Assembly (NCBI GenBank): GCA_965116585.1
Contig: OZ220714.1
Coordinates: 2,309,247 to 2,373,246 of the forward strand
DNA length: 64,000 nt
Direction: 5' to 3'
Origin: Gammaproteobacteria bacterium
GTDB lineage: Bacteria > Pseudomonadota > Gammaproteobacteria > Eutrophobiales > Eutrophobiaceae
Shown: positions 9,473 to 37,492 of the stretch, piece after piece
Layout: every line of letters starts with the position of its first letter
How positions within the stretch are numbered: position 1 is the stretch's first letter
Notes under the pieces: model-generated
The model's input: the letters and a program-made list of their open reading frames with translations, nothing else
Told to the model about the DNA's origin: nothing
Database searches by the model: none
Position numbers and translations under genes: made by a program

Positions 9473-9476
9473 GGGC

Positions 9477-11297: not shown

Positions 11298-11352
11298 GAG
11301 TGCAACGGACAGCATTAATCTGGCGATACAGGAAGAATTGGCTGCCAGGTAC

Positions 11353-13505: not shown

Positions 13506-13599
13506 GGGTTTGCTCCCGAACCAAGCCCGTTGTCGACGACTAGCTCCCGAGATTTATACCGCCCCAAACTTCGATACTCTACTACACAATTCCCCAAAA

Positions 13600-13729
13600 A
13601 AAGAACAGCCGCGTTAGCGGCGGCTGTCGGGCCGTGGCTCCCTCCTGTCATGACAAGGCATGGGCACACCAACGGTGAGGTTGAGCAAAGTCTATTATAA
13701 CACCCGACACTGTGTCAATGATTTGAATC
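13600..13729. repeat. Copy 2 of the intergenic repeat family
   Basis: ...CCCCAAAAAAAGAACAGCCGCGTTAGCGGCGGCTGTCGGGCCGTGGCTCCC...GTCAATGATTTGAATC is almost identical to 27020..27157. Confidence 0.7.
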
Positions 13730-13832
13730 GGCCTTGCGGTTGCTTTGTTTCCTCTCTCATCTTCCCTCATCTGCTGTTATTAACTTGTAAATCACGGTAT
13801 AATCTATTGTAATCCTTTTCTGGAATCTGTAT

Positions 13833-14837
13833 ATGTACTCAAATCGAATTTCATTCTACAAACAACTGGAGGATGCCAGACAGTCTAAGGTGCTGGCGTA
13901 TATCACAGGTGACCGGCGCCAATTAGAGACAAAAATGGCTGCGGAGGTTCTAGACTTCTTTGTCCATCATCTTGACAAGATTGGTGTTGTTGGAAAGCTT
14001 TCTCTATTTCTTTATACCCGTGGTGGGGATACTTTATCAGCTTGGAGCCTCGTTAATTTGTTACGTGCTTTTTGCGATAAGCTAGAGATTATCATTCCTT
14101 CAAAAAGCCATAGTGCCGGAACGTTAGTTTGTCTGGGAGCGGATATATTAGTTATGACTAAACAAGCCACTTTGGGTCCTATTGATCCAAGTGTAAATAC
14201 ACCTCTGAATCCTCAAGTTCCGGGTGGACAACCTATGGCAAATGTACCAGTGAGTGTTGAAGATATTAACGCTTTCCTTGAGCATGCCCGAGAAACAGTT
14301 GGTGTGGGCACTCAACCAAACATCGGTACTGTCTTTGATAGACTTGCGCAAAATGTTCATCCTCTCGTTCTTGGAAGCGCCTTTCGAGCGCGCTCACAGA
14401 TTCGCATGTTGGGAAGCAGGCTCCTTGCTAACCACATGGATAATGAAGATGGTATGAATAAAATCCTGGATTTTTTGTGCAGCGAATCTGGCAGCCATGA
14501 CTACACAATAAACAGAAGAGAAGCTCGAGATGATCTATCCTTACCTATTGAGAAACCAAGCTGGGAACTTTACGAAATAATCAAAACTCTGTATGACGAT
14601 ATTGCCTCAGAATTAGAACTGACTACCGCCTATGATCCAAACTTGGTCTTGGGAGGTTCACAAACTAAGAATTATTCATTTACGCGAGCACTGATTGAGA
14701 GCGCGGGGGGTGGTTCAGATGCTTTCTTAAGTGAGGGGGTTCTCAGTCGCCAACAGATTCAAATTCAGCCAGGTGTTGTAGGAGATGCTATCAACGACCA
14801 ACGTCAGTTTGAAGGATGGAGACATCGTGATGCCTAA
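13833..14837 (+). CDS. SDH-family / ClpP-fold (S49-like) serine protease homolog
   Basis: ...LSLFLYTRGGDTLSAWSLVNLLRAF...PSKSHSAGTLVCLGADILVMTKQATLGPIDP... is a ClpP/crotonase-fold protease core with a Ser nucleophile context. Confidence 0.55.
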   Translation: MYSNRISFYKQLEDARQSKVLAYITGDRRQLETKMAAEVLDFFVHHLDKIGVVGKLSLFLYTRGGDTLSAWSLVNLLRAFCDKLEIIIPSKSHSAGTLVCLGADILVMTKQATLGPIDPSVNTPLNPQVPGGQPMANVPVSVEDINAFLEHARETVGVGTQPNIGTVFDRLAQNVHPLVLGSAFRARSQIRMLGSRLLANHMDNEDGMNKILDFLCSESGSHDYTINRREARDDLSLPIEKPSWELYEIIKTLYDDIASELELTTAYDPNLVLGGSQTKNYSFTRALIESAGGGSDAFLSEGVLSRQQIQIQPGVVGDAINDQRQFEGWRHRDA

Positions 14838-15075
14838 CATCGATAATCCACATCTATCTGTCAAATTAACCCAAGCTAGCGGTATGACCCCGAGCATAGC
14901 AGAAGACACAATCGCGACCGATAACCTTTCTGCTATGATGAAAAATGCTATTGTCATTTTTCAGTCAACACTTACTTTAATTGACTCTCCTTCCCAATAT
15001 CAGAGTGAAGATGGGACTGCTGAAAGGGCTAAAGATTTCGATACAAGTACAAAGCCTCAGATATCAGAGGGGTAG
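14830..15075 (+). CDS. Small hypothetical protein (81 aa), start overlapping the protease stop
   Basis: ORF only; ATG at 14830 overlaps 14837. No known domain; it may be spurious. Confidence 0.25.
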   Translation: MPNIDNPHLSVKLTQASGMTPSIAEDTIATDNLSAMMKNAIVIFQSTLTLIDSPSQYQSEDGTAERAKDFDTSTKPQISEG

Positions 15076-15085
15076 GTATCTCTGA

Positions 15086-15299
15086 CTAGTACTCTTTCAA
15101 TTTAATTCTGACCGGTTAGCTTGTCATAAGCGGTTCACTCCAACGATACTGACCAGCCCAAAGAAACGGTACCAGATGTAAAGTGAGGGATCAGCATTAT
15201 GCCGCCTTTTTTCTTTCTTTTCGATATCTGTCAGCAAACGCCACCACTCGATTAATCTTGACCCGTCGATCAATCAGAATTAAATTGAAAGAGTACTAG
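15086..15299. mobile_element. MITE-like element: 25-bp perfect terminal inverted repeats flanking ~164 bp
   Basis: CTAGTACTCTTTCAATTTAATTCTG (15086..15110) is the exact reverse complement of 15275..15299. It sits between two convergent gene ends; the right inverted repeat overlaps the stop codon of the NACHT gene. Confidence 0.5.
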
Positions 15300-18200
15300 T
15301 GTGGCAAACGAATCTCGCGGAATGCCTCACCGAGCTGAAGTGCCACACTTCGCCGGTCACCCATGTCGACAAGTATGTCGAGGATATGTAAGAACTTCTG
15401 AGCCAAAGCCAGCGCCATTGGCGCGTCACGATGTACAAAGTGTTGTATCATCTCCGCTATGCGCTCCGGGATGAACGTTCCATACCAACCCTTTAGGTTG
15501 TCGGGTCCATCGCCGATAATTGCGAGCACCTGATCCGCGAAGGCTTCGGCTGGGTAGTCGGCCCTGGCTCGCTCACAGAGCGTCAAGAACGGGTCCATAA
15601 CGGAAGCTGCCCATCCGCCAGCGCGAACGAAACGATCAATCAGCGGCAGGATGCGGCTGATTTCGGACCAGTCGCCGTTGACGTAGCGAGTGGCCAGGTC
15701 CGCGCGTTCGACTGAGACAAACATTAACGTGCGAACAAGTTTGGGCAGATCGAAGCCATAGAGATTTCCTCTCCGGTAGCCGTTTTTCTGTAAGGCTGGG
15801 GCTTGCAGAAGCCGGTCAAGACAAAGGTCCAGCGTCGCGACTGCATCCTCTGGGACTACCGGCGCATCGTACACGTAGGAGCAGATGTAAGTATCTACGA
15901 ATGGAGAGAGAAGATCCCAGCAATTGTCACCCTCGATCCCCAATATTGGGTCGAGGAAACGGGCCTGAAAATCACTAAGAGGTAGAAGGCCGACCACCTG
16001 GCCGAGTGCCGACCCGAGGGCGTGGGTCCATTCAAAGCTCTCGGTTGCCGAACGATCTCGACGTCCGGGCTTCATCCAAGGCGGCACATTCTTCTGATTG
16101 GTCCAGTCGAGAACCCCTGTCAGAAAGTTGAGGAGTGCGCTTTTTGCGCTACTGCTTAGGGCCCCGTCGAAGGGGATGCGCTCCAAAATTTCCGCCGCCC
16201 GCTTTGAGTACCAATAGACATCCGGTTCACCCCATACTTCATCTGCGTCGACCGTATCATCTGCATCGTACTCTACAAATCTTTGACACCCACTTCGACC
16301 CTTCCCGGGTTTGACCTTCATCCAGGCCGGAGGCGGTAGCGGAAGGGGCACCCATCCGCTACCGTTTTGATAGAACGCAACCGCCACATCGACCGCCGCT
16401 TGCGCTTCACTTGACGAGTGGAGCGCTTCATTGTGTTGCCTAAGTTGGCCACGCGGCCGCGGAGGAATATGACAGAGCGAAAATGCCAAGATCAGCGCGG
16501 CCCAAGTGAGCTTGGGGTCCTTAGACCAAAGCCTGCACGCTTCTTCGAGCGCAGCTAACGAAACGGCTTCGAGTGGATGCGCAATCAGCCCAAGGAGGTC
16601 GTGAGCTGTGCCCTGTTCGGCTGTGCCTTCGTGGAGGTCCGCTGCGAAGCCTCGCGCTACGTAGATCGCGTGGTGCCATGGGATGACGGAACCAGGCGGC
16701 CACGTCTGACCAGGCTTTTCTGGTAAACGGATAGCGCGTGCCAGGACATCTCGAGACCACTCAAGGTTTTCTTGTGTGCATCGCTCGCGAAAGTTAAGCG
16801 TGATTGCCGCGGTAGCGGCGACTGCGCCACGACGCATACCCGATAGTTCTTCTTCGTCCTCGTCGTCCAGGTGCCTGAACAAGTCGCGGGAGTCCGCTTC
16901 CTTGGCCAATGCTATGGCCCCTTCGACCGTGTAGGTATCGCTCAGTGTCTTCTTCTCGAATGACTTGGAGGCCCAAGTCCAAAGGTTTGTCTGGGCAAGA
17001 CGCTTAGACGCCCCTTCGGCTCTGGTAACGTTTTCAGGCTTAGCAGCAGAAGGACTAACATGGACAACCGCAACCTGGTCCGAATCCTCTTTGGTGCGGT
17101 AAACCTGATAGTTTTCCGGGTCAACTAACTCTGCATATTCCAAGGCCTGAGATGTAAGGTCCTCGCGTGCCTCCAGAATGTCGCGGTGCTCTTCGTACTG
17201 GTAGGGCAAATCGTTCTTAAAATTGAGGACCGCTTCGCGGACCCGGTGGCGGAGCGGTGCCGTCCCAAAGAAAAACATAGGTACCATCCAGCTAAGCTGT
17301 TTGTTACGGACTGGTCTGGCATTTGCTGCTTGGATCGCCTCAATGTGGTGATTATCGTTGCTATTCGTAAAACCGATCAGGTTATTCGTTGACGAAAAGT
17401 CTTGTACCATTCGGTTACGGTCTGCAGTCAACAGTCGTTGTGAGGTAACGAGGGGAAAAGTCGCTTCGCACACCGTCTCGGTATCGAGCGCAAGCATCGA
17501 CGCGATGCCCAGGATGGCGATGCATTCATTCCCTTCTACGATTTGCTGGATCAGTTCATCTACGGCGCGGTTACGCTCAAGCTCGGTGAAGCACCACTCT
17601 TCAAGCGCCATAAACCCGCAACCGATGGCTGCCGGCGCCCACGTTGAACGAAACCAAAGATATTCCCGATCAGTGCCCCAGAACTTTTGGGTGTCCCAGG
17701 GAAACGTCAGTTCGAGTGGTACGGGGGTGCCGCGACGGTCGGGTGAGTGACGATGCAGTTGTCGCCACGCAATCATCGCGTGATTGCAGAGCTCTCGAAG
17801 AAGCCGCAGTGCGTCGTTGGGCGATGATTGGAAAAGCGAGTGAAAGGGCTCTCGAAGCGGTGAAGCATTCGGGAAGCATCGGTGGTCGTCGTGGACCGAC
17901 AGCCTGTTCCAGTCGTGGTGGCTGAAATTGCCGACGGTTCGTAGGGAAAGCGCCCCCGAAAGCGCGATTTCATCTTGACGCGAGCGCTCGGCGTCCGGCT
18001 TGGCAAGAGCTGCTTTGCGCCAGTCAGCCGCATCATGTTGTTCCTGCTTCTCGCGGGCAACTCGCTCGTCCGGAAGCTCCCTTCGCAGGAACGCCAGTGA
18101 AAGCTTAACCACCGGCTGGGGTAATGACTGGGCGAGGACGGGTGAGAAGGTGATGATGTCATGAAATACCTCGTCGCGGATTTGCTTTGAGCTGATTGCT

Positions 18201-20680
18201 CGCTGCAAATAGTTGGCTGCAAGGGCAGGCTCGGCTCTCGATGATCTCAGTAGAAGCTGTCCAAGAGATTTTCGGAAAGCATCCAGGTCGGATACCTTCG
18301 CCCAGTAAGCAGAGTTCTCATCAGGCCCATCGGCGGTACTGATCGCGTCGATGGCGGCGAGCCAGGTAGCGCACTGTTGCAGAAGAGCGCGGGACGTTGG
18401 GTTGCGAATGTCGGCCAGGATATTCTGCCAGACATCGAAGACAGCCACGATCTCCGGATAAAGCCTCTGCGGAATGCCTGAAATGCGTCGAAGGATAAAG
18501 TCGATTAGGCGACGCCACGCGGAGAGGTCGGAAGGCCATCCGAGAAAATAGGCAATCCGTTGTCGTTGCTCTAGTGGATACTCCCCAGAAAGGATCATTT
18601 CATTCGGGGTAGTCTTCTCAGCCTGAAACCAGACGAGCGTCTTCCTGAAAAGGTAGAAGTCATTGGCAAAGACGGCCATCGCGAATTGATCCTCATCAAC
18701 TTCAAACCTCGCAGTTCCGAAAGGACCCACCAGCCAGGCTCGCAACCATTGTGATCTTAGACCTGAATCCCCAGCTTGGGCGAGGTACACTGGCCAGTCT
18801 GCTCCATGTGCATACTCCCATTGGGAAGCGAGTTCGACGACGCGCGCGACCGCTGGTGGTTCGCCGCAGTCCTTGATCACTTCTATCCATTGTGGCCCGC
18901 GATCGGCAAGGACGTGGAAGAAGGCCCATTCAAAGAAGATATCGTGGGCGAAACGGACGGAGATCCCTTCGCGGACATTCAGGAGTATGCCGTCCGATCT
19001 CAGGTCATTGATGTATGTAACGGAGTTGAGTTGGCCAAGGCCAATCGGTTGGCTAAGTTGACGGGCATGAACACGCGCTAAGTTGAGCAGCGCGCGTTGG
19101 CGTTCAATTGCGCGTTGGCCTGTTTCATTGTAGCCGCCCCGTCGCCACCAATTCTCGATCAGATCGATTTCAGATTGTGGAGCGAATGTCGAAGTGCTGG
19201 GGTCGGCTACGTAACCCTGGTTCAGCACCTTCGCGAAAAAGGGTCGTCGGACAATCTCTATCACCTGCGCTGGTCCAAACAGAAGTGGCTTGAGGTGTGG
19301 TTTGGCTTTTGCAAGCGTGTCTGCTTCGTCGTCGCTCAGCTGACCAACGACAAGCGTCTCGACCTTCAGCGCATCAAGGAAGTTACCCAACCAATTACGA
19401 AGCATTTCAATGCCGGTGTCGCGAAGGGAGACAACGACGCGCCAGTTATCGAGTAACGGTGACTCCACGATGGTGCGGACCACATCAATGATGATGGGCT
19501 GGTGCTCATTATTGATGCGATCAATTGCATCAATGAAGAGTATGGGAGTACCGGCAGCCGCAATCTCCAGGAGAAGGTGCTCCAAGGAGGTACCCGAAAG
19601 ACCCTGCGAGGCAGCGTAGCTGGTCCAGCTGGTGCCTTCGAGTTGTTCGGCTTTGAGGAAGAGGACCGGTCCGTGTTCTAACGCGCGCTGTAATGTCCGC
19701 TTTACTACAACTGATTTACCGCTTCCGGGTAGACCGCGCACCTGGACGACACGAGCAGTTGTGAGTTTTGCGTCCAGTTCCTCAAGGAGTGAGGCTCGGT
19801 CGAGCTTCATGCCTCCGATATCATCCGGGATGAGGGTTGCATAGCTCATTGCAAGCTCTGTCAGCTTGTCGAGGTCGGGGCGCAATGAGATCGAGCCGCA
19901 AAGGCGTGCGATTGGTGAAATCAAGCGCACAAGCCGCGCGCGATCAAATTGGCCTGACTTGCCTGCTGATGCGCGGGCTAGTTGAACGAACCGCGACCAG
20001 ATGAGAGGCGCCTTGGCTGTATCATCGGGCGCAAGGCAATCTCGAATGCGATTAATGGCATTAGGGGGATCCGTGGCGCCTTCACGAAGGAAGTCGAACT
20101 GAATGAGCACGAAGTGCGCGAGAAAATGATGCACTTCCTCAGATGTGCATGGTGTCCCCTTCGATTCTTCCAGTAAGGCAACGATGTCATTTTTGACGGC
20201 TTTGATGCCGCCCCTGGCATTGCCCCCCTTTGCAAAGCGAGCGTCGAAATGGTCTGCCGTCAGACTTTCACGAGCCCAATCACAAAGGGTCTTGAGCGCT
20301 CGCTCTTTGGCAGGGGAGATCGTGCCAACTGCAGCGCCGTAACGGTCGGCACTGACGCGGAAGTCAGACTTTCCAAGAGTAGCCCAACTGTCGAGAATGA
20401 TGCCGCGAAAGTGTTTGTTCGTTATTGCATTGCTGATCGTGAGCGAACGCTTTACTTGTAGGCTGAGGCGGGCAGGCTTTTTTTCGGCGTCTTCAAAGTC
20501 AATAATTACATCATCGAGAGGTTCGCCGAAGTCGCGCTGCTGAACTGACACACTGACAACGGTTCGATCATCCATGCCGGGGGCATACTCTTCGGCAAGA
20601 AGCGCGGTGAGATAAAACGCAGCCACATCTCCTTCAAAGGTGAAACCCTCGCCGCCAGCGAGTTCAGGTGATTGTTTCAT
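15296..20680 (-). CDS. 1794-aa NACHT/STAND-type P-loop NTPase with an N-terminal PD-(D/E)xK-like nuclease domain and a long helical C-terminal region (Avs / bacterial-NACHT-like antiphage protein)
   Basis: Walker A VRGLPGSGKSVVV. NACHT-type Walker B PILFIDAIDRI (hhhhDxhD). N-terminal GFTFEGDVAAFYL...VIIDFED...LSLQVKRS resembles Cap4/Mrr-like D...(E/Q)xK nucleases. About 1300 aa of the C-terminus is alpha-helical and W/L-rich. Confidence 0.6.
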   Translation of the reverse strand: MKQSPELAGGEGFTFEGDVAAFYLTALLAEEYAPGMDDRTVVSVSVQQRDFGEPLDDVIIDFEDAEKKPARLSLQVKRSLTISNAITNKHFRGIILDSWATLGKSDFRVSADRYGAAVGTISPAKERALKTLCDWARESLTADHFDARFAKGGNARGGIKAVKNDIVALLEESKGTPCTSEEVHHFLAHFVLIQFDFLREGATDPPNAINRIRDCLAPDDTAKAPLIWSRFVQLARASAGKSGQFDRARLVRLISPIARLCGSISLRPDLDKLTELAMSYATLIPDDIGGMKLDRASLLEELDAKLTTARVVQVRGLPGSGKSVVVKRTLQRALEHGPVLFLKAEQLEGTSWTSYAASQGLSGTSLEHLLLEIAAAGTPILFIDAIDRINNEHQPIIIDVVRTIVESPLLDNWRVVVSLRDTGIEMLRNWLGNFLDALKVETLVVGQLSDDEADTLAKAKPHLKPLLFGPAQVIEIVRRPFFAKVLNQGYVADPSTSTFAPQSEIDLIENWWRRGGYNETGQRAIERQRALLNLARVHARQLSQPIGLGQLNSVTYINDLRSDGILLNVREGISVRFAHDIFFEWAFFHVLADRGPQWIEVIKDCGEPPAVARVVELASQWEYAHGADWPVYLAQAGDSGLRSQWLRAWLVGPFGTARFEVDEDQFAMAVFANDFYLFRKTLVWFQAEKTTPNEMILSGEYPLEQRQRIAYFLGWPSDLSAWRRLIDFILRRISGIPQRLYPEIVAVFDVWQNILADIRNPTSRALLQQCATWLAAIDAISTADGPDENSAYWAKVSDLDAFRKSLGQLLLRSSRAEPALAANYLQRAISSKQIRDEVFHDIITFSPVLAQSLPQPVVKLSLAFLRRELPDERVAREKQEQHDAADWRKAALAKPDAERSRQDEIALSGALSLRTVGNFSHHDWNRLSVHDDHRCFPNASPLREPFHSLFQSSPNDALRLLRELCNHAMIAWRQLHRHSPDRRGTPVPLELTFPWDTQKFWGTDREYLWFRSTWAPAAIGCGFMALEEWCFTELERNRAVDELIQQIVEGNECIAILGIASMLALDTETVCEATFPLVTSQRLLTADRNRMVQDFSSTNNLIGFTNSNDNHHIEAIQAANARPVRNKQLSWMVPMFFFGTAPLRHRVREAVLNFKNDLPYQYEEHRDILEAREDLTSQALEYAELVDPENYQVYRTKEDSDQVAVVHVSPSAAKPENVTRAEGASKRLAQTNLWTWASKSFEKKTLSDTYTVEGAIALAKEADSRDLFRHLDDEDEEELSGMRRGAVAATAAITLNFRERCTQENLEWSRDVLARAIRLPEKPGQTWPPGSVIPWHHAIYVARGFAADLHEGTAEQGTAHDLLGLIAHPLEAVSLAALEEACRLWSKDPKLTWAALILAFSLCHIPPRPRGQLRQHNEALHSSSEAQAAVDVAVAFYQNGSGWVPLPLPPPAWMKVKPGKGRSGCQRFVEYDADDTVDADEVWGEPDVYWYSKRAAEILERIPFDGALSSSAKSALLNFLTGVLDWTNQKNVPPWMKPGRRDRSATESFEWTHALGSALGQVVGLLPLSDFQARFLDPILGIEGDNCWDLLSPFVDTYICSYVYDAPVVPEDAVATLDLCLDRLLQAPALQKNGYRRGNLYGFDLPKLVRTLMFVSVERADLATRYVNGDWSEISRILPLIDRFVRAGGWAASVMDPFLTLCERARADYPAEAFADQVLAIIGDGPDNLKGWYGTFIPERIAEMIQHFVHRDAPMALALAQKFLHILDILVDMGDRRSVALQLGEAFREIRLPH

Positions 20681-20782
20681 CGCTAGCTTGAGTCTCGTGA
20701 GTAAACATCAGTCGTGGGAGCGATTGAGATAGATTATGCGCCGAGAATGGACTGCGGGCAATGAAGGATTAAATTCATAACT

Positions 20783-20996
20783 CGGCGAAATGCCCGACAT
20801 CGAGGTAGAACACATCGAAACCCCCACCAAAGCCACCCAACTAGGCGCCAAAGGCTGCGGCGAAGCCGGCATCATCGCCATCTGCGGCGCCATCATGAAC
20901 GGGATTAACGATGCGCTGGAACCGTTCGGGGCGGAGGTGACTTCACAGCCGTTTACGCCGGAGAAGATATTGAGGGTGTTGGGGAAGGTTGGTTAG
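20783..20996 (+). repeat. Right copy of the 214-bp direct repeat; orphan 3' fragment of the CoxL-like gene; putative attR
   Basis: Encodes MPDIEVEHIETPTKATQLGAKGCGEAGIIAICGAIMNGINDALEPFGAEVTSQPFTPEKILRVLGKVG, the last 68 aa of the CoxL-like protein with 3 substitutions. Confidence 0.85.
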
Positions 20997-21122
20997 TTCC
21001 CGGGTTTGCTTACCTGCTCCTTTTGCTGCCTAACCTTCTGGGTGCGGCACAACGTGTTGATTTTTCCTGGCCATTTTGGACTCCATGAGTTTATTTTAGT
21101 TGAATAACCACAATTTTTTGCT

Positions 21123-21149
21123 AATATTTCAACCATAGATTGAAATATT
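21123..21149. promoter_or_regulatory. Inverted repeat (AATATTTCAA-N-TTGAAATATT) in the promoter region of the HTH-ImmA gene; putative operator
   Basis: Perfect 9-10-bp arms in an AT-rich region ~45 bp upstream of a GGAGG ribosome-binding site and the ATG at 21197. Confidence 0.35.
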
Positions 21150-21196
21150 GCATTAATTATTGTGAATATCAACCACATTAATAAAGGAGGAAAACC

Positions 21197-22276
21197 ATGT
21201 TTGGACAAAGACTCAGATTAGCGCGAAAGAAGGCTGGGTTATCAATGCAGGCCCTTGCAAACAGCGTTATACCCAAAGTTAGCGCACAAGCAATCAGCAA
21301 ATATGAGGCGGAAAAGATGATGCCTTCTTCAGCGGTGCTGGTCGGACTAAGCAAAACGCTTGGCGTGTCCATTGACTTCCTCATGGGAGGGCAAGTCGAA
21401 ACCCTGAAAGGTGTCGAGTTCCGCAAACATTCCGGCACCTCGGCACGAGATCGCGCCCGCGTCGAAGCAATTGTGACTGAAAAGGTCGAAGACTATCTGG
21501 CAATTGAAGACATTCTGGAACTGGTTCCGCTTGCCAATCCCTTTGGCGATCTGGTGACCGATGAGATTGAGAGTATCGAGTACGTTGATGACATGGCCCG
21601 GGCTTTGCGGGAGAAATGGCTGCTGGGACTGGATCCAATTCCCAGCATGTCTGCGCTGCTGGAAGATAAGGGGATTAAAGTTATCGAAGCGGATCTACCG
21701 GATCGTTTCGACGGAATGGCTTGTGATGTAAAGCGTAGTGAGGGCAGACCTGACACGGCAGTCGTCGTTGTGTCCAATCGTACTAATATTGAACGCAAAC
21801 GATTTACTCTCGCCCATGAACTCGCACACAGAGTCATTCGCTCGACTGGTAATCCAGGTATCAATCTTGAAAAAGCCATGAACCGCTTCGCAGGTGCATT
21901 TCTTGTACCAAGCGAACATTTAGTCAAGGAAGCCGGGGCACATCGGCACGGCATGACTTATCACGAGTTGGTTCGGCTAAAACATCTTTATGGCGTTTCG
22001 GCGGTGGCACTGTTGATGCGGCTTATGCAGGTAGATATTTTGTCAAAAGCGGCGACCGAATATGCCTTCCGCAGCTATGCACGCACTTGGCGAGTTGAAG
22101 AACCTGAGCCGATCCGTAATGATGAGGGCTTTGGCACCTTTGAACGGCCACAGCGTTTCGAGCGACTGGTTTGGTGGGCCTTGGGAGAACACCTGATTTC
22201 GTCTGTACGCGCAGCGCAGTTCTTACGTTTGCCGGTTTCGACTATCGAACAGGAAATTCGAGGGCCACAAGACTGA
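21197..22276 (+). CDS. XRE-family HTH domain fused to an ImmA/IrrE-family (COG2856) zinc metallopeptidase
   Basis: N-terminal HTH (FGQRLRLARKKAGLSMQALANSV...SKYE) and a HEXXH motif (LAHELAHRV). Confidence 0.8.
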   Translation: MFGQRLRLARKKAGLSMQALANSVIPKVSAQAISKYEAEKMMPSSAVLVGLSKTLGVSIDFLMGGQVETLKGVEFRKHSGTSARDRARVEAIVTEKVEDYLAIEDILELVPLANPFGDLVTDEIESIEYVDDMARALREKWLLGLDPIPSMSALLEDKGIKVIEADLPDRFDGMACDVKRSEGRPDTAVVVVSNRTNIERKRFTLAHELAHRVIRSTGNPGINLEKAMNRFAGAFLVPSEHLVKEAGAHRHGMTYHELVRLKHLYGVSAVALLMRLMQVDILSKAATEYAFRSYARTWRVEEPEPIRNDEGFGTFERPQRFERLVWWALGEHLISSVRAAQFLRLPVSTIEQEIRGPQD

Positions 22277-22786
22277 TGACCTGTGTCGCTGTCAATGATG
22301 CGTCTTGTCTGATAGACCTTCGAAAAGGGCAGCTTCTGCATGTTTTGTCGCGCCTGCCTTATCGTTTCATCGTACCGCTACCAATACGTGTGTCAGAATT
22401 ACTTGACTTCACGCCCCAGGAATGGGCAATTCTCGATGGTGGAGGTATGGAAACCTACCGACCTTCCTCCAAAACGGATGGTGGATGTATTCGCACTAAA
22501 GAGGCAACACGGGAGGCTAACAGCTAACGACTGCTTTTGCTTGGTGGCCACACAATGTCACGAGGGAGGAATTCTTCTGACCGGTGATAGTCTTCTGCGC
22601 AAAGTCGCGTCCGAGGTCGGTATTGAAGTCCATGGTGTGCTCTGGGTCATCAAAGAATTTATAGCAGCCGATGTCTGTGATAAGGCGCTTCTGATAAGAG
22701 CTTTAAATATTTGGAAAGACGATGCAACAGTTTTCCTTCCTAAGTCTGAGATCGAACAGCAGTTAAGCGTCCTTCTTTCCTCATGA
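22276..22786 (+). pseudogene. PIN/DUF4411-like nuclease gene interrupted by a +1 frameshift (two overlapping ORFs, 22276..22527 and ~22450..22786)
   Basis: ATG overlaps the upstream stop (TGATG). N-terminal part MTCVAVNDASCLIDL... is in frame 1; C-terminal part ...RLTANDCFCLVATQ...GILLTGDSLL... (PIN-like acidic motif) is in frame 2. The total ~170 codons fit a single PIN gene. Confidence 0.55.
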
Positions 22787-23006
22787 ATGCATTGATTCTG
22801 TCTATCGACAAATAAAACGATTAAAAAGCGACCTTAGGTGATGGCTTCTCTCAGAGGTAAAATAAATTACATAGGGCAATTTAATTCAAAGCAGGTGGCC
22901 CGCTTGGAAAAATTTTTCCTGATTGCTGATTCCGATTTCAACGTGAACGCGGATTCCGGGAAAGTGAACACCGATTTAGCTTGACCACGTAACGCGAGGT
23001 GCAACT

Positions 23007-23267
23007 ATGGCAGCTTTTGAAAATCTCTTAAAAACAGAGTCCGATTTCTACGGACGCGAGCAACACAATCTATTGGCGAAGTACCCCAACAGGGTTTTGT
23101 TGATACACGGTGATCGTGTTGAAGGAGATTTTGATTCCGAGGAAGCGGCAATTACAGAAGGGGTACGCAAGTTTGGCGTAGGTCCGTTTTTAGTCAGGAG
23201 AGCCGGAGAACAAGAACCTGTTTTTTTCAGCGCCAGCATTAGCGTTGGGCCTGTAAAATGTTGGTAA
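23007..23267 (+). CDS. 86-aa conserved hypothetical protein (paralog B)
   Basis: MAAFENLLKTESDFYGREQHNLLAKYPNRVLLIHGDRVEGDFDS... is ~80% identical to the 11037..11297 product. Confidence 0.6.
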   Translation: MAAFENLLKTESDFYGREQHNLLAKYPNRVLLIHGDRVEGDFDSEEAAITEGVRKFGVGPFLVRRAGEQEPVFFSASISVGPVKCW

Positions 23268-23360
23268 GGTGCGACAAGGATCGTTATTGTACACAGAACT
23301 GGATGAACCTAGGTTCAAGGATTATTTACATTATTTTTTTGTCGAAGGAATCTACATAAC

Positions 23361-25322
23361 GTGCAAATTTCAACAATTCTTGATTATATCGATTATGGTC
23401 ACATAGCTCTTCCAGAGTTTCAGCGAGGGTATGTTTGGAATCGGGACCAAGTACGGAGGCTGTTTGATTCTCTTTATTACCGGCATCCGATAGGTGGGCT
23501 TCTAGTCTGGGCAACTGACGCACGCACCGCAGCATTTCGGGGAGATGGGCCAATAGCCCCAGGAGTTGTCAAACTCCTACTAGATGGCCAGCAACGAATG
23601 ACCTCTCTTTACGGCGTCATTCGTGGCCATGCCCCAAAATTCTTCGATGGGAACGATTACACTTTTACAGGTCTTAGCTTTCACTTAGATACTCAAACTT
23701 TTGCCTTTTATCAGCCGATAAAGATGAAAGATGATCCCCTATGGATTGATGTCTCTCAACTCATGAAGGCTGGTACAGATGGTATTGACGGATTTACCTC
23801 CAAGCTCAGTGAGAATCTGGAATTGTCCCAGAAAGGAGTTGGAATGTATGCAGGGCGATTGATTCGTTTACTTGGTATAAGAGATATTGATCTTCATATT
23901 GAGGAGTTAACAGGTGCAGATAAAACCATTGATGTCGTAGTCGATATTTTCAACCGGGTTAACAGCGGCGGCACAAAGCTTTCCAAGGGTGACCTCGCCC
24001 TTGCCAAGATATGTGCTGATTGGCCCGAAGCGAGAGATGCGATGAAAACGACACTCAAGGGGTGGTCTGACGCAGGATATGGCTTCAATATAGACTGGTT
24101 GTTGCGTTCGGTAAACACTGTGCTCACCGGCGAAGCCAAATTTCAGTATTTGCATGATAAAGATGCTATTGAAATACAAGATGGTTTAAACCGCGCTGTT
24201 AAACATATTAATAATTGTCTCAATATGATTGCCGGACGACTGGGGCTTGACCATGATCGAGTTTTCTTTGGTCGGTTTGCAGTACCAGTGATTGTGAGAT
24301 ATCTGGATCGAAGAGGTGGAATGCTCAATGAACAAGAGAGGGATAAGCTTCTATTCTGGTTTGCGCAGGCAGGGATGTGGGGCCGTTTCTCAGGCTCAAC
24401 TGAATCCTACATTGATCAAGACCTTGAAGCTCTCGAAGGCGAGCATGGTGGGCTTAATCAGCTTATAGAACAGCTTCGTCTTTGGCACGGGGGACTGCGT
24501 GTCGAACCGGGACATTTCACAGGCTGGAGTATGGGAGCCCGGTTTTATCCGGTGCTCTACATGCTAACAAGGATGGGGGAAGCCCTCGACTGGGGAACCG
24601 GTTTGCCTCTTAAAGCAAGCCTTTTAGGAAAAATGAACAGTCTTGAAGTCCATCATATCTTCCCAAAATCACAACTATATGATCGAGACTTTTCCAGACA
24701 AGATGTGAATGCGCTCGCAAATTTCTGTTTTTTGACCAAGGATACAAATCTGGTTATAGGTAACAAATTACCGGAAATTTACTTCCCAAAAATTGAGGAG
24801 GCCCATCCGGGCGCACTGAAATCACAATGGATACCCGATGATCCTGTCCTCTGGAATGTAAGTAATTTCCTTGAATTCCTTGAGGCCAGAAAAGCTCTTC
24901 TTGCAGATGAGGTAAATCACCGCATGGAAGAGTTGCTTCATGGTGATAAAAGTTGGCTCACTGGACCGTCTACACCAATGCCAGTGCTTGAACCAATATC
25001 TGTTCCTGGCAGTATAGAAAGTGAGGATGAGGAAAAAGAACTTGAAGATGTCAATAGCTGGATTTCTAAAAATGGACTCCCTCGCGGTACCTTGTCCTAT
25101 GATTTTTCCGACCCTGTAACTGGACAGCAAAAGGCTTTGTTTGATTTGGCTTGGCCGAATGGCATCCAGGAGGAATTAAGCCAGCCGGTTGCCCTGCTGT
25201 TGAATGAAAGTAGTGAGGTTTTAGCCATCGCAAGTCAGGCAGGGTATCGGTGTTTTCTGAGCACTGCTGACCTGCGACGATATATTCAATCAGAGGTGTT
25301 GATTGAAGAAGTCGTTTCTTGA
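23361..25322 (+). CDS. GmrSD-family (DUF262 + DUF1524/His-Me) type IV restriction-like endonuclease
   Basis: GTG start. N-terminal ...LLDGQQRMTSL is the DUF262 motif. ...LEVHHIFPKSQL...NALANFCFLTKDTN is the DUF1524 HNH-like motif. There is a ~150-aa C-terminal extension. Confidence 0.75.
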   Translation: MQISTILDYIDYGHIALPEFQRGYVWNRDQVRRLFDSLYYRHPIGGLLVWATDARTAAFRGDGPIAPGVVKLLLDGQQRMTSLYGVIRGHAPKFFDGNDYTFTGLSFHLDTQTFAFYQPIKMKDDPLWIDVSQLMKAGTDGIDGFTSKLSENLELSQKGVGMYAGRLIRLLGIRDIDLHIEELTGADKTIDVVVDIFNRVNSGGTKLSKGDLALAKICADWPEARDAMKTTLKGWSDAGYGFNIDWLLRSVNTVLTGEAKFQYLHDKDAIEIQDGLNRAVKHINNCLNMIAGRLGLDHDRVFFGRFAVPVIVRYLDRRGGMLNEQERDKLLFWFAQAGMWGRFSGSTESYIDQDLEALEGEHGGLNQLIEQLRLWHGGLRVEPGHFTGWSMGARFYPVLYMLTRMGEALDWGTGLPLKASLLGKMNSLEVHHIFPKSQLYDRDFSRQDVNALANFCFLTKDTNLVIGNKLPEIYFPKIEEAHPGALKSQWIPDDPVLWNVSNFLEFLEARKALLADEVNHRMEELLHGDKSWLTGPSTPMPVLEPISVPGSIESEDEEKELEDVNSWISKNGLPRGTLSYDFSDPVTGQQKALFDLAWPNGIQEELSQPVALLLNESSEVLAIASQAGYRCFLSTADLRRYIQSEVLIEEVVS

Positions 25323-25639
25323 GGTGAGTAGCATCAGTTGGCTGGCTGCTTTTACGCATCTTTAACCGGGTCGGTGGCAGTTTAGAATGAGGAGGTGCGG
25401 TATATTATGGGTCGTCTATCAGGTAGACGTTGAGGCGGATGCCAGCCAGAGGGATTCCGCCAGTCTGGAGAAAAAGTACAGAACGATGGATGTTGGAAGT
25501 GTCGTGTGAAAAGTGTGCAACCGAAAGTCGAGTGGCGTGTTAATATTATTGCAGACACGGCTGGTAATATTTGTGAACGTTCAAAATACTAAGTGATAGC
25601 TCCACGACGGCGTTCCGAACTGAGAGAGAAGAGGCAAAC

Positions 25640-25864
25640 ATGATCACACAACAGAAAAGACCAGAAAAAACTGGAAATTGTTGGTGTGGGTGTGATGAAG
25701 CTACAGATAGTTACTTCATCCCAGGGCATGACGCAATCGCTCGAAACGCACTATTGGAAATCGTCTATGGGAAACGAAAAACAGCTGAAATCCTTGAGAT
25801 GCTCGGTTTTAGCCCATCGAACAGCGTTAGTGCGGCGAGAGATAGAGTACAAAACAAGAAGTAG
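25640..25864 (+). CDS. Small Cys-rich hypothetical protein (74 aa)
   Basis: GNCWCGCDE cysteine cluster; no known domain; low-GC region. Confidence 0.35.
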   Translation: MITQQKRPEKTGNCWCGCDEATDSYFIPGHDAIARNALLEIVYGKRKTAEILEMLGFSPSNSVSAARDRVQNKK

Positions 25865-25897
25865 TACATTCAGCGTATGACAAAGGCTTAGCTGATT

Positions 25898-26560
25898 ATG
25901 CAACAACTTGTAATAGCTGCCATCCTGATTGCGGCGATGTCTACATTTAGCCGAGATATCAGTAGCCAAAACACCCCGCCAGATAGTCAAGAAGGCGCCG
26001 CTATTGTACAAACGGCCCAGATAGAAGGGCAAGAGACCGCAGAACAACCCCTCGGAATGAAAAACGATGCAAACCTCATTCAGGATCAGGATATTATGGA
26101 ACAGACGTCTCAACCACAGGAACAGGACAGCGTCAAAGAGGTCCCCCAACTGGATGAACAGGATAGCACCACAGAAACTGCCCAGCCAAAGGATAAAGAT
26201 GGGGACCCACAAGCTCTGACTTGGTGCTCACCATTGGTTATAGTCCAATGCTTATGGATGGCGCTGATCGCCATAGGCGCTCCGTTATATTCAAAATGTG
26301 CAGCCCCGGGTAAAAATGAAAAAGAACTCAGGGGCCTGAATTTGCCCAGAGGTTCAATCCGGGCGATACTGGCCCTCTTGGCAGTGGGTTCCTTTGTGAA
26401 TGTGTTGGTATTAGGCGCACCTGCGCTAGGGGAGCGTTTTGATAGTATTCTTGCTGCCTTCGGCACTTTGACGGGAGCCATGACGGGTTTCTATTTTGCT
26501 AATCGCTCTGCGACAACCCATCCTAATTTAAATTCAAATACGGAGTCGCAGACTTCATGA
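25898..26560 (+). CDS. Hypothetical membrane protein (N-terminal TM, acidic/Gln-rich linker, C-terminal TM helices)
   Basis: ORF with hydrophobic N-terminus (LVIAAILIAAM), a Q/E/D-rich low-complexity middle, and two C-terminal hydrophobic helices. Confidence 0.4.
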   Translation: MQQLVIAAILIAAMSTFSRDISSQNTPPDSQEGAAIVQTAQIEGQETAEQPLGMKNDANLIQDQDIMEQTSQPQEQDSVKEVPQLDEQDSTTETAQPKDKDGDPQALTWCSPLVIVQCLWMALIAIGAPLYSKCAAPGKNEKELRGLNLPRGSIRAILALLAVGSFVNVLVLGAPALGERFDSILAAFGTLTGAMTGFYFANRSATTHPNLNSNTESQTS

Positions 26561-26632
26561 ATGGACTGACAGAGGATAACCCGGAAGAGGATAGGTCGAA
26601 ATCTATGAAAAGCCCACCCCAAGACGGTCCTT

Positions 26633-26755
26633 ATCCTGGGAATCAGTAGTGAAGGTGGGACATTCGCAGCTGATATGGGAAGATTGGACCAGATGAATAT
26701 TGCCCGTATGCAGGGCAACAAGGTGTATTGCGATGGCAGCTACTAACTTTGATAT
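26633..26755. repeat. ~80% identical copy of the island-internal left-border segment 7612..7740 (the HepT 3' flank)
   Basis: TATCCTGGGAATCAGTAGTGAAGGTGGGACATTCGCAGC...GATGAATATTGCCCGTATGCAGG aligns with 7612..7740. Confidence 0.6.
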
Positions 26756-26985
26756 CATCGAAATCAATATGCGCCTGTTCCTTGACATTTACAACTTATG
26801 AACTAAATTCGAAATTGAAAATTGGGGTATTCCCGGTCGACATTGGGGTTCTGGAGTTTTCCGGAGCCTCTTTTGTTTTTTGCTGTATGGAAACACTTTC
26901 TTTTCTGTCAGTTTGGACCTGATAATCTCATATGCTCGGTTGGGTTGTCCCGACTAAAGACGTTCAGAGCAACGGGCTTAGGTAT

Positions 26986-27157
26986 CCTTGGATATCGCTG
27001 AGATATGCTACCATTAGCTCCACAAAAAAGAACAGCCGCGTTAGCGGCGGCTGTCGGGCCGTGGCTCCCTTCCTGTCATGACAAGGCATGGGCACACCAA
27101 CGGTGAGGTTGAGCAAAGTCTATTATAACACCCGACACTGTGTCAATGATTTGAATC
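26986..27157. repeat. Copy 3 (longest) of the intergenic repeat family
   Basis: CCTTGGATATCGCTGAGATATGCTACCATTAGCTCCACAAAAAAGAACAGCCGCGTTAGCGGCGGCTGTCGGG...GATTTGAATCA. Confidence 0.7.
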
Positions 27158-27341
27158 ACAAGCCAGGTACCCTCATCCGGCATCGAAAGCGTTACATCAA
27201 GATAAATCCACTTTATGGTGGTATTTCAGACAGAATATGTTGTTTATTACCTTGTATTTTTGACAATTACTGTTAATAATAACCTTGTATTTTTGACATT
27301 TCTGTATTATAGTGCCTTCTTATTTGCCGGAGGTACCAACC

Positions 27342-28670
27342 ATGAAGCGTTCTATTGATGCCGTGCTGCGAGCCTGGAAGGATTCTTCCGGGCGCAAGCC
27401 GTTATTGATCCGGGGGGCGCGTCAGGTAGGCAAATCCTGGTCCGTGCAGCGCTTTGGCAAGCAGGAATTCGCTGATATGGCAGTCATCAATCTTGAATCG
27501 GAGCCGCATGTTGCGGAGTTGTTCCGGAGCATGAACCCCAGGGAGATACTGAACAAGATCGAAATACTGACCGGGCAAAAGGTGGTTCCCGGCAGAACAC
27601 TGTTGTTTATCGACGAGATTCAGGCGTTTCCCAAGGCTGTTTCGGCGTTGCGTTACTTCTATGAGGAAGCCCCGGAACTGCACGTGATCGCGGCAGGTTC
27701 GTTGCTGGAATTAACCCTGCATGCAAGCGGTATTTCCATGCCGGTGGGGCGTGTTCAATACCTGTATATGAAGCCCATGAGTTTTGAAGAATTTCTCATT
27801 GCGCAGGGGCAGGAAACGGTAGTTGAAGCGCTCAGACACAATCGGAGTTTGTTCGAAGAACCGGTGGTTCACGACACCCTGCTTGACCGGGTAAGACAAT
27901 ACCTGCTCATCGGCGGCATGCCCGAAGTGGTGGCAGAATACCGGGAATCCGGGAACTACGAACATTGCCGCCAGATCCAGACCTCCCTGCTACAGACCTA
28001 CCGGGACGATTTCAACAAATATGTAAAATCCGGACGACATGAAAACGTCGGCAAGGTATTCCAGTCCGCCGTGCAACAGGTGGGAAACAAGTTCAAATAT
28101 GCCAGGGTTGACCCTGACGAACTCTCCAGAAATATAAAAACTGCCCTGGAATTACTAACGCTGGCCGGTGTGTATCACAAAGTCGTCAAGTCATCTGCTG
28201 AGGGTTTGCCCCTGGGAGCAAATATCAATGAGCATTTTTTCAAGGTGCTGTTTCTTGACGTCGGCCTGATGCAAAATCTCTGTGGTCTGGCGACGGATAT
28301 TATCCGGGAAAAGGACTTGATGGCGATCTACCACGGCGCGTTAATGGAACAATTTGTCGGGCAGGAACTGATTGCCTGTCAGGACTGTTTCACCAGGCCG
28401 GCGCTGTATTACTGGGCCAGGGAAGCCAGAAACAGCAGTGCGGAGATTGATTTTGTCTGCCAGTCCGGTACCAACCTGGTCCCGATAGAGGTAAAAGCCG
28501 GGAAAACCGGGCGGCTCAGAAGCCTGCACCAGTATCTCGCAGAAAAACAACAAGGATGGGGAGTTAAAATATCGACCGCGCCGCTGCAATATGAAAAGCC
28601 GGTGTTATCCATTCCCTTTTATATGGTCAACCATTGGCAGGCATTGTGGGAGGTCCGGGAGAGGGATTAA
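27342..28670 (+). CDS. ATPase with AAA (PF13173-like) and DUF4143 domains
   Basis: Walker A RGARQVGKS and Walker B LLFIDEIQ; a GGAGG ribosome-binding site before the ATG at 27342. Confidence 0.75.
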   Translation: MKRSIDAVLRAWKDSSGRKPLLIRGARQVGKSWSVQRFGKQEFADMAVINLESEPHVAELFRSMNPREILNKIEILTGQKVVPGRTLLFIDEIQAFPKAVSALRYFYEEAPELHVIAAGSLLELTLHASGISMPVGRVQYLYMKPMSFEEFLIAQGQETVVEALRHNRSLFEEPVVHDTLLDRVRQYLLIGGMPEVVAEYRESGNYEHCRQIQTSLLQTYRDDFNKYVKSGRHENVGKVFQSAVQQVGNKFKYARVDPDELSRNIKTALELLTLAGVYHKVVKSSAEGLPLGANINEHFFKVLFLDVGLMQNLCGLATDIIREKDLMAIYHGALMEQFVGQELIACQDCFTRPALYYWAREARNSSAEIDFVCQSGTNLVPIEVKAGKTGRLRSLHQYLAEKQQGWGVKISTAPLQYEKPVLSIPFYMVNHWQALWEVRERD

Positions 28671-28677: not shown

Positions 28678-29808
28678 CTACCCTCTTGATGGTTGCACCG
28701 CTACTCTTACGATGAACAGGAAGGACAGCAGCATGACGCTGATGCCCATCCAGAGGACGGGGGTGAAACTGTCTGAGGTCTGCAACAGGGCGGCGCAGGC
28801 GGGTCCGGTTGAGGTGCCGACCGCGGCTACGAGGTTGGACAGGATCAGCAACCTGCCCGTGGTATCCACGTTGGCGATGGATGCCATGATGTAGGGCAGG
28901 GTGAAATACCAGGCAAAGGTGAACAGCCCTACACTGATTACGTAGCTGGTGGTAGAGAAATCCGTCAGCAACAGTGCCGTGCAGAAGACTGCCAGCGCGG
29001 TGCCCAGCGCAACCGGAAGGAGGCGACTGAAACGGGTGGACAGCGCGGCCGTGGCCATGGAACCCAGGAAACCGAGAAACAGGCTGGCGGACAGCGCATA
29101 ACCGATAGTATGGGGCGCGATGCCGCCGGCATTACCGATGCGTTCGTAGTAAGTCCAGACGCCCATGATGCCGGCTTCGAACAGAAACAGGCCGATAAAA
29201 CCGAGCCCTACCAGGATGGGCACCGAACCTGTGGCTTTGACCTCCTGGGCTTGTTCAATTTCCCCGTGGTCGGGGATATAGCGGATGAACACCAGCAACA
29301 GGGCATGCAGTCCTGCCAGCAGCAGGAATACCGCGCCGACCCCGTAATCCGCGATCAGGTCAGGAAGAAATATCACTCCCAGTGAACCTGCCAGTAATTG
29401 CAGGCCGAACCAGTAGCCGAGACTGCGGTCCGGGTCCGGGGTGCGGTGAATGACGGCCATACAGACGGCCAGCAGTATGCCGGCCGCAAATCCGCACATG
29501 AAGCGGGTGGCCAGGTAGGGAGTAAAATCCGTGAGTGAACCGGTAACCAGGTTCATCAGGATGATCACACCCACGGAGCAATACAACGCCAGGCGCCAAC
29601 TGACCTTTCTTACCCAGATTGCGGCAGGGATGGGCGCCAGGGCAAAACCGGCCAGCTCCACAGAGATGATGTAGCCACCCTGCTGGTTGCTGAACCCCAG
29701 TTGCGTCACGTATCCGCCTACCAGCAAGGGCGCGATAAAATATATCGCCGCACCGAAGGTGTTCAACAACGACAGGATGGTGAGGGTGCGATAGGGTACG
29801 GAGGCCAT
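28678..29808 (-). CDS. MFS-type membrane transporter
   Basis: 12-helix-like hydrophobic pattern, 376 aa. Confidence 0.6.
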   Translation of the reverse strand: MASVPYRTLTILSLLNTFGAAIYFIAPLLVGGYVTQLGFSNQQGGYIISVELAGFALAPIPAAIWVRKVSWRLALYCSVGVIILMNLVTGSLTDFTPYLATRFMCGFAAGILLAVCMAVIHRTPDPDRSLGYWFGLQLLAGSLGVIFLPDLIADYGVGAVFLLLAGLHALLLVFIRYIPDHGEIEQAQEVKATGSVPILVGLGFIGLFLFEAGIMGVWTYYERIGNAGGIAPHTIGYALSASLFLGFLGSMATAALSTRFSRLLPVALGTALAVFCTALLLTDFSTTSYVISVGLFTFAWYFTLPYIMASIANVDTTGRLLILSNLVAAVGTSTGPACAALLQTSDSFTPVLWMGISVMLLSFLFIVRVAVQPSRG

Positions 29809-29910
29809 TAGCGGGATACTAACATGGATGGACGGGACAGAATCATACTTTCAGTTTCCATTGATGAAAATGGCCAGCTTGCCAATAAACCTTGTTCATT
29901 CTGGCTTCAT

Positions 29911-30018
29911 TCGTCATTCCGGGCTTGACCCGGAATCCAGTCAAACAAGCAACTCCTCATAAAGTGCGCAAACAACGCGGGGGGTTCTACTGGATTCCTG
30001 CTTTCGCAAATGACGAAC
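29911..30018. repeat. Pair of inverted REP-like palindromes (CGTCATTCC-hairpin-GGAATCCAGT family)
   Basis: 29911..29945 TCGTCATTCCGGGCTTGACCCGGAATCCAGT, with the inverse orientation at 29988..30018. The same family occurs at 3140..3170, 37493..37588 and 62669..62703. Confidence 0.7.
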
Positions 30019-37477: not shown

Positions 37478-37492
37478 TTATCCAGCGCCACG

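Follow-up and report, generated by a model that had tools for sequence, protein, structure and literature searches.

What is the DNA that carries on past the right-hand copy of a direct repeat in a bacterial defence island, and in what order did the stretches on either side of that copy arrive? The locus that raises this question lies in a 64,000-nucleotide stretch of contig OZ220714.1 from an uncultured gammaproteobacterium (hereafter the window, whose own positions are used throughout), between a molybdenum hydroxylase gene, MoCo, and an MFS transporter gene. The segment 20997-28670 is horizontally acquired anti-phage and toxin-antitoxin DNA. We give a probability of roughly 0.62 to the reading that it is the older half, low in guanine plus cytosine (GC), of a 21-kb composite defence island at the MoCo|MFS junction, and that a 13-kb block was added later, likely by homologous recombination. 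Judged by its gene families, the older half appears to be a chain of independently moving modules: a RosmerTA-like toxin-antitoxin pair (an RmrA-type antitoxin gene with a frameshifted toxin gene), an orphan gene for a protein of 86 amino acids (aa), a GmrSD/HEC-05 candidate, two open reading frames (ORFs), linkers and a PDC-S01 gene. Its modules appear to serve against phages and in addiction, and at least one seems to have decayed. The argument leans on the following features:

5205-7592, plus strand: MoCo, the left core anchor, a CoxL-type molybdenum hydroxylase large subunit of 795 aa (Pfam Ald_Xan_dh_C, MoCoBD_1, MoCoBD_2)
7379-7591, plus strand: left copy of the direct repeat (D2a), which is the last 213 nt of MoCo
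7593-20782: the newer block, about 13.2-13.4 kb
20783-20995, plus strand: displaced copy of the last 70 codons of MoCo (D2b), with its own stop codon TAG at 20994-20996, where the newer block meets the older one
20996-21196: remnant flank, made up of some 10 nt of the type found behind the MoCo stop in the related locus L030, a DUF2188 remnant and the RmrA upstream region
28678-29808, minus strand: MFS transporter gene, the right core anchor (Pfam MFS_1)

The preliminary description of this stretch had taken the DNA past the right direct repeat to be accessory, with a GC content that looked low by eye. Both windowed composition and comparison with related genomes bear this out. GC content is 47.5% in 20997-28670, against 59.5% in the left core (1-7592) and 59.5% in the right core (28671-64000), and between 20 and 28 kb, 2-kb windows have a tetranucleotide distance to the core that exceeds that of 40 core windows by 8-13 standard deviations. 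GC at third codon positions is 0.40-0.50 for the genes of the segment and 0.62 for PDC-S01, compared with 0.69-0.80 for core genes. For the comparison, ten related uncultured gammaproteobacterial genomes were retrieved with the MoCo protein (84-90% identity); genomes and loci are denoted by L numbers below. In L003 and L005 the MoCo and MFS stop codons are about 75 nt apart and all of 7593-28677 is missing, while L006, L007 and L010 are without the 20997-28670 block. Synteny of 21-28.7 kb is therefore not conserved, and since the block is missing from these five related species and its composition deviates, core status is excluded. The variable region is 7593-28677 (21 kb), which fills the MoCo|MFS junction. 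Because the content between the same two genes is absent or different in related genomes, this junction is a hotspot, with other content in or near it in L004, L006-L010, L021 and L022. Examples are a PD-(D/E)XK nuclease gene after MoCo in L004, HepT/MNT pairs near the junction in L006, L007 and L008, and, in L009, four further low-GC genes, one of which has a T5orf172 domain.

In this comparison, PDC-S01 is the sole gene of 20997-28670 that recurs at this position. Its orthologues lie between MoCo and MFS in L008 and L009, with 76% and 82% protein identity, close to the divergence of the neighbouring core gene (MFS identity of 78% and 70%), and a 3′ remnant of PDC-S01 adjoins MFS in L022. The gene thus looks like a long-term and apparently the oldest resident of the junction, possibly the ancestral one, and the last 1.4 kb of the segment would be an old, semi-conserved resident rather than recent cargo. 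Exact-sequence look-ups of the MoCo, MFS and 86-aa proteins returned nothing on record. From their bin labels, we take the relatives to be probably sponge-associated. An enrichment of restriction-modification and toxin-antitoxin genes has been reported for metagenome-assembled genomes (MAGs) of sponge symbionts (PMC8163846).

In close relatives, the block that runs from RmrA to GmrSD bordered the MoCo stop codon directly. The L030 contig, whose MoCo is 97.1% identical over 816 nt, has a single gene end with its stop codon, followed by a gene for a 160-aa lipoprotein, a DUF2188 gene and then the equivalent of window 21007-21390, where RmrA starts. Positions 1-819 and 1695-2079 of L030 match the window on either side of 21006/21007, so that the window is without 875 nt of L030, including the 160-aa lipoprotein gene and most of the DUF2188 gene, which this deletion truncates. 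L042 (MoCo 96.7% identical) likewise has a single gene end, after which come DUF2188, RmrA, the toxin gene in intact form, the 86-aa gene and GmrSD (99%); its match to window 21007-25489 is 96.2% over 4.5 kb. The 13-kb block is missing in both. Since L030 and L042 have one MoCo end followed by the RmrA block with no 13-kb segment, we infer that the 13-kb block was added later, between MoCo and a pre-existing RmrA-to-GmrSD block. Of the two histories offered previously, insertion of the 13-kb island into (or rather beside) a pre-existing island fits best. The other, two adjacent islands of which the second has a degraded left attachment (att) site, falls away, as no separate att is needed where 20783-20995 is the old MoCo end itself. 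At 499-516 of L042, the MoCo stop codon reads CAA instead of TAA and the protein is five residues longer.

The 213-nt direct repeat (7379-7591 and 20783-20995) is 97.7% identical between its copies, and the homology ends exactly at the stop codon. It brackets 7593-20782. No such pair surrounds 20997-28670, and no third copy was found in the window, including the right end of the older block; there are two copies only. The copies need not be att sites, with no integrase found. For annotation, this means that the supposed attR is a displaced gene end and not the edge of the island, the true variable region being 7593-28677.

A second displaced end was found in L021, from another sample. There, the MoCo end is followed by an 18.7-kb island of different genes (SNF2/NOV_C, DUF4062-HATPase, Trypsin_2, DUF1156, DUF499, a Cap2-like E2/E1/JAB gene, and helix-turn-helix plus M78), then by a second copy of the MoCo end and by the lipoprotein/DUF2188 flank as in L030. 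The displaced copy of L021 starts at ATGGCCGGCG (window 7374), within 5 nt of the start point in the window. Compared with L030, it has 24 differences in the first 148 nt (84% identical), and only nine substitutions and one indel in the next 854 nt (about 99%; Fisher p = 3e-9), a pattern that marks a sharp recombination joint at window 7521/7522. In the window itself, the two repeat copies differ at five sites (7508, 7517, 7520, 7528 and 7573). At the first three, D2b carries the alleles of L021 and other species, and at 7528 and 7573 those of the L030 type, to which the right part of D2b and its flank also belong. A joint of the window in the same TTCGGGG stretch as in L021 (7521-7527, with the switch between 7520 and 7528) is only suggested by these five sites, whose haplotypes are reticulate. 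A de novo long target-site duplication was also considered as the source of the 213-nt repeat and was ruled out, as the L021 copies differ by about 15% on one side of the sharp breakpoint.

These observations are compatible with a history in which DNA from a relative was integrated by host RecA-type homologous recombination, the mechanism that we consider probable. The MoCo gene would have served as the left anchor and a gene-end copy carried by the incoming DNA as the right one; a circle that enters by a single crossover in the repeat would give an equivalent topology. With a crossover within the last 213 nt of MoCo, the incoming gene end would stay on MoCo and the displaced end at 20783-20995 would be left as a fossil, with no island-borne integrase involved. 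Recombinase domains were found in none of the ORFs of 7.6-28.7 kb, nor in the flanking and other scanned ORFs of the window, nor in the L021 island. The surroundings of the tRNA-Gln gene and other parts of the window, searched for an integrase, yielded only housekeeping genes. The sole mobility gene found is that of an IS66 element in the newer block.

Several points weigh against this history. The L030 and L042 contigs, which come from other samples, are short (2.1 and 5.9 kb) and are not proven to be conspecific full genomes. The polarity rests on parsimony, and repeat-mediated loss in these two relatives could have produced the same picture. In the window, the crossover point is not firmly mapped. 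The start points of the displaced ends in the window and in L021 are no more than 5 nt apart, and both ends apparently switch origin in the same 7-nt stretch; such a coincidence is expected from a site-specific enzyme or a single ancient junction and not from random homologous crossovers, and one inherited ancient junction fits the shared boundary and switch point equally well. Single-base frameshifts could be assembly or sequencing errors, and the defence functions of the island modules are putative, being read from family matches only.

Islands that bring their own integrase and occupy gene 3′ ends are familiar, as are tandem arrays with integrase-less members (cis-mobilisable elements, built up by accretion). 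The locus resembles them in its gene-3′-end direct repeats, its restored frame and its two blocks split by an internal repeat. Site-specific tandem accretion would accordingly explain the locus with an att core at or near TTCGGGG (7521-7527) and a tyrosine or serine recombinase acting in trans or since lost. Each island would carry a gene-end mimic of 213-225 nt and each insertion would push older islands downstream, so that 20783-20995 would be a true attR and the 13-kb block an integrase-less cis-mobilisable island. The direct repeats around the block and the MoCo frame restored to its stop codon speak for it, as do the other 18.7-kb cargo of L021 behind a displaced end that starts within 5 nt, the sharp origin switch of the L021 copy at 7521/7522, and the five differences in the window, which fit a switch between 7520 and 7528. 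Unlike such islands, however, the locus has yielded no integrase, relaxase or excisionase, whether in the scanned ORFs of the 64-kb window or, for the recombinase, in the L021 island; its repeat is long (213-225 nt) and its second block has no outer copy. Tandem accretion requires at least three att copies for two units and the window has two, with none at the right end of the older block. The sequences just to the left of the displaced copies in the window and in L021 are not clearly related, the shared boundary, the 7508/7517 alleles and the right flank fit one inherited ancient junction equally well, and the most conserved stretch of the repeat (7530-7562) lies beside the switch point, where it would attract homologous crossovers between diverged partners. 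Accretion of this kind, the main rival, seems unlikely to us.

The order of events might also be reversed, the tandem arrangement or the 13-kb block being ancestral and lost from L030 and L042 by recombination between the repeats; 21-28.7 kb would then be no older than 7.6-20.8 kb. A deletion between 213-nt repeats that are 97.7% identical is easy and leaves exactly one gene end, and the gene end of L030 is a mosaic of the two copies in the window. Against this, the RmrA block adjoins the gene end in the window, L030 and L042, as its upstream flank does in L021, the 13-kb block is seen in the window only, and the slot in L021 holds a different cargo. With the RmrA block or its flank next to the gene end in each of the four genomes, and with a different cargo in L021, the reverse order is the less parsimonious. 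L030, L021 and L042 also retain the lipoprotein/DUF2188 stretch, whose deletion makes the window the derived state in this respect, and L042 is not derivable from the window by a single deletion, because a spacer described below lies on the other side of the block. We regard the reverse order as distinctly improbable. A chimeric assembly of two strain haplotypes, or core DNA of unusual composition, is hardly credible: the source is probably a MAG, strain variants of the locus coexist in public data, and the indels at 22458 and in runs of seven T could be sequencing errors, but no simple haplotype accounts for the junction 20782|20783 (upstream region of an Avs4-like gene against a mid-codon gene end), a junction of this kind turns up independently in L021, which comes from a different sample, and the five species without the block, with the deviant composition, rule out core DNA.

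Later addition by homologous recombination thus remains the preferred reading, and the same set of loci shows that modules are exchanged between genomes and between loci. In L022, which is more distant (MFS DNA 78.5% identical), a 46-nt tail of the gene end lies between a CBASS/AAA_16-TPR block and an MFS-side block; the latter contains the restriction-modification pair, the MNT gene and the 86-aa gene of the newer block in another order, along with the PDC-S01 remnant. The restriction-modification, 86-aa and repeat sequences of L022 are 83-93% identical to those of the window, compared with the 78.5% of MFS. The RmrA module (21019-22773) is 91.6% identical to that of L023, where it has an unrelated neighbourhood; it lies at other loci in L023 and L024, as GmrSD does in L043 and L044. 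The L007 genome carries the RmrA module elsewhere (L024 10001-11462, L025 4578-6039), with no toxin gene called downstream, and retention of the RmrA antitoxin alone may be recurrent.

The modules and linkers of the older block are, from left to right:

21006-21074, minus strand: truncated DUF2188 remnant, the first ~23 codons (tblastn of the L030 DUF2188 protein; DUF2188 Pfam tag on L042)
21197-22276, plus strand: RmrA-type antitoxin/regulator, XRE helix-turn-helix plus M78 zinc peptidase, intact (Pfam HTH_3 and Peptidase_M78; PADLOC RmrA, 1.6e-43)
22276-22786, plus strand: partner toxin gene, PIN-like by motif, split in two frames (orthologues tagged DUF3368)
23007-23267, plus strand: second copy of the 86-aa ORF, with 33 nt of upstream sequence (repeat 22974-23275, 88% DNA identity to 11004-11306)
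23361-25322, plus strand: GmrSD-like (DUF262) type IV restriction-enzyme candidate, a single gene for 653 aa (Pfam GmrSD_N PF03235, 5.3e-26, residues 4-217; PADLOC HEC-05, 1e-42)
25640-25864, plus strand: ORF of 74 aa (weak PHROGs match only, phrog_5477, E 4e-4, a family of unknown function)
25898-26560, plus strand: predicted membrane protein of 220 aa, no family
26631-26743: repeat D5b, 81% identical to 7625-7737
26744-26985: spacer, also found at L042 539-724 and L022 10310-10462
26986-27157: third copy of an intergenic repeat
27312-28670, plus strand: ATPase with AAA_14 and DUF4143, PDC-S01 (Pfam; full-length PADLOC PDC-S01, 8.5e-152)

PADLOC thus returned three known or candidate defence genes in this block (RmrA, HEC-05 and PDC-S01), and those of the adjoining 13-kb block are a type II restriction-modification pair, an Avs4-like gene and an MNT gene (PDC-S09). 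Most of the gene labels given from the translations alone agree with the profile searches. Those of XRE-HTH/ImmA and AAA/DUF4143 were matched by HTH_3 with Peptidase_M78 and by AAA_14 with DUF4143, respectively, and a second copy of the 86-aa protein is present, with 84% protein identity to the first. Two labels hold in part. The gene called a frameshifted PIN/DUF4411 does carry the frameshift, but found no Pfam match to support the family name. For GmrSD, the N-terminal domain and HEC-05 matched, whereas the C-terminal nuclease domain was not detected by Pfam.

RosmerTA comprises a zinc-peptidase antitoxin plus a toxin whose function is not known (Millman et al., bioRxiv 10.1101/2022.05.11.491447). 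Like its RmrT/RmrA pair, the module studied here has an M78 antitoxin beside a small toxin gene, which overlaps the RmrA stop by one base. Unlike that pair, the toxin is PIN-like and DUF3368-tagged, appears frameshifted and has no match to the PADLOC RmrT profile; the module is a candidate for a role in defence. When aligned with the intact orthologues of L023 and L042 (167 and 169 aa, 89% protein identity), the toxin gene has one extra base (C) at about 22458, making it an apparent pseudogene, with a sequencing error as the other possible cause. The toxin fragments, the repaired protein and the intact L042 orthologue match no Pfam family, PIN and DUF4411 included. The gene's sole profile match of its own is a weak one to PADLOC PDC-S70 (6e-5), DUF3368 being the precomputed tag of the orthologues, and a PDB sequence search with the intact orthologue gave spurious matches only.

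With GmrSD/HEC-05 systems, the 653-aa protein shares the N-terminal DUF262 domain, the HEC-05 match and the single-gene arrangement. It differs in its ~130 extra C-terminal residues and in that the C-terminal DUF1524, a His-Me finger nuclease, has no Pfam match at E <= 0.01. A motif EVHHIFPKS...N was read by eye in the C-terminal part of the translation. Beyond the near-identical copy in L042, proteins 72-86% identical to it occur across unrelated taxa. PDC-S01 matches its profile over the full length, the class itself being a candidate one, defined by association with defence islands only. The 86-aa, 74-aa and 220-aa ORFs gave nothing usable in Pfam, NCBIfam, PADLOC or PHROGs, and the latter two have no relative in any fetched locus.

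The two 86-aa ORFs (23007-23267 and 11037-11297) are 88% identical in DNA, and the family has 34 relatives, every one from metagenomes or MAGs. The usual downstream partner of this gene encodes a retropepsin-like protein of ~159 aa, with an FDTGAS motif and a sub-threshold Asp_protease_2 match. The pair is found at L019 6001-6728 and L021 10001-10730, and both copies in the window are without the partner. Both also have a run of seven T (11247-11260 and 23217-23230), compared with six in L042, which alters the last ~15 residues and reflects either parallel slippage or a homopolymer sequencing error.

The newer block consists of the following:

7734-8468, minus strand: HepT/MNT toxin-antitoxin pair (Pfam, PADLOC)
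8537-8708: first copy of the intergenic repeat
8717-10980: IS66 element, with inverted ends and an 8-bp target duplication GAAAAATT
11037-11297: first copy of the 86-aa gene
11353-13505, minus strand: type II restriction-modification pair (Pfam, PADLOC)
13597-13729: second copy of the intergenic repeat
13833-14837: SDH-type protease
15296-20680, minus strand: Avs4-like ATPase of 1794 aa

The IS66 element looks intact, with terminal inverted repeats GTAACTACTC... and a perfect target duplication. It sits between the first copy of the intergenic repeat and the first 86-aa gene, a junction that is uninterrupted in L022, and the first of its ORFs (8795-9472) is similar to the C-terminal portion of a DNA methyltransferase. 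The interval between the SDH-type protease gene and the Avs4-like gene, at the 3′ end of the latter, contains a perfect 27-nt inverted repeat (15085-15111 and 15274-15300, with 162 nt between its arms).

Non-coding sequences recur at the joints between modules. The third copy of the intergenic repeat, previously noticed in the older block, is confirmed at 26986-27157. The stretch 8537-8656 is 95% identical to 26986-27105, and 13597-13729 is 99% identical to 27024-27157; copy 3 thus has its left part in common with copy 1 and its right part with copy 2, and the copies are therefore potential substrates for rearrangement. Shuffled window sequence gave zero matches to the core of this element. 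Six copies of the ~130-nt element were found in 682 kb of fetched DNA, all of them in the MoCo|MFS hotspot and always at the end of a gene module:

window 8570-8700, 13593-13722 and 27019-27150 (minus strand)
L021 5699-5829
L022 7921-8053 and 9826-9957

On the minus strand, all six have TTGACA (a -35 sequence), a -10-like hexamer about 18 nt further on, a core of ~85 nt, which is the most conserved part, and a GC hairpin with a T-run. In copy 3, the best promoter-like site on this strand is at 27146-27117 and the terminator-like hairpin at 27055-27031. No ORF is conserved across the copies, neither start codons nor frame being kept. Rfam returned only the tRNA-Gln gene for the window at the gathering threshold, and chance-level matches at a permissive one. 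Neither the single-sequence fold (z = 0.3) nor the alignment fold, which has no compensatory pair, gave a signal beyond the terminator, and a pattern for the core that fits all six copies found nothing in IMG/VR or JGI metagenomes. The element has the look of a small RNA gene, or of a terminator-promoter module that may travel with the cassettes. An integron attC site was rejected as an identity for the repeat, the copies being 5 and 13 kb apart with no IntI found.

Two further linkers stand beside copy 3. The stretches 7625-7737 and 26609-26743 are read as the 3′ end of a decayed gene, for which no family was found; the right copy is open for 45 codons up to TAA and the left one has a premature stop. 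The spacer has a plus-strand promoter-like site (26782-26809) and a terminator-like hairpin (26845-26870), and is found on the right of the RmrA-GmrSD block in the window but on its left in L042.

Taken as a whole, the island is an ordinary and well-documented type of bacterial defence-gene hotspot. Hotspots that lack mobile-element genes and diversify through recombination at the core genes on their flanks have been documented (PMC5635113; PMC10250203; PMC10121019). As at the core defence hotspots cDHS1 and cDHS2 of P. aeruginosa (PMC10250203), hotspot #37 of E. coli (PMC10121019) and others (PMC5635113), a fixed pair of core genes brackets highly variable, lower-GC defence and toxin-antitoxin genes, whose set changes from one close relative to the next, with few or no mobility genes, and homologous recombination at the flanks has been proposed there too. 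The locus differs from them in coming from an uncultured gammaproteobacterial lineage seen at about a dozen loci, in the displaced 213-nt copy of the left gene end that marks the slot, and in the short conserved non-coding linkers that recur at its module junctions. Less commonplace are the displaced gene end that recurs with a shared joint, the linker that resembles a small RNA gene, and the pair of the 86-aa and retropepsin-like genes. What the analysis offers is a coordinate-level dissection of a hotspot in an uncultured lineage, with an old and a new block, a recombination joint and modules that travel separately, and it adds a small amount of material to the question of how integrase-less defence islands are exchanged.

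A more speculative extension, which we think doubtful, is that such islands are homology-addressed cassettes that move without a recombinase of their own, the 213-225-nt gene-end copy acting as a portable right homology arm and the ~130-nt element and linkers as joints for reshuffling. If so, a whole island could be recombined into any genome that bears MoCo, whatever lies downstream, and the outcome would be integron-like, driven by the host recombination machinery.

A palindromic REP-/MITE-like repeat of ~100 nt was also observed at 37488-37588, with shorter pieces at 3140-3178, 4712-4759 and 29910-29961. In L004 and L026, the same repeat follows closely on MoCo, in L023 it lies upstream of the RmrA module, and it also occurs in L022 and L043.

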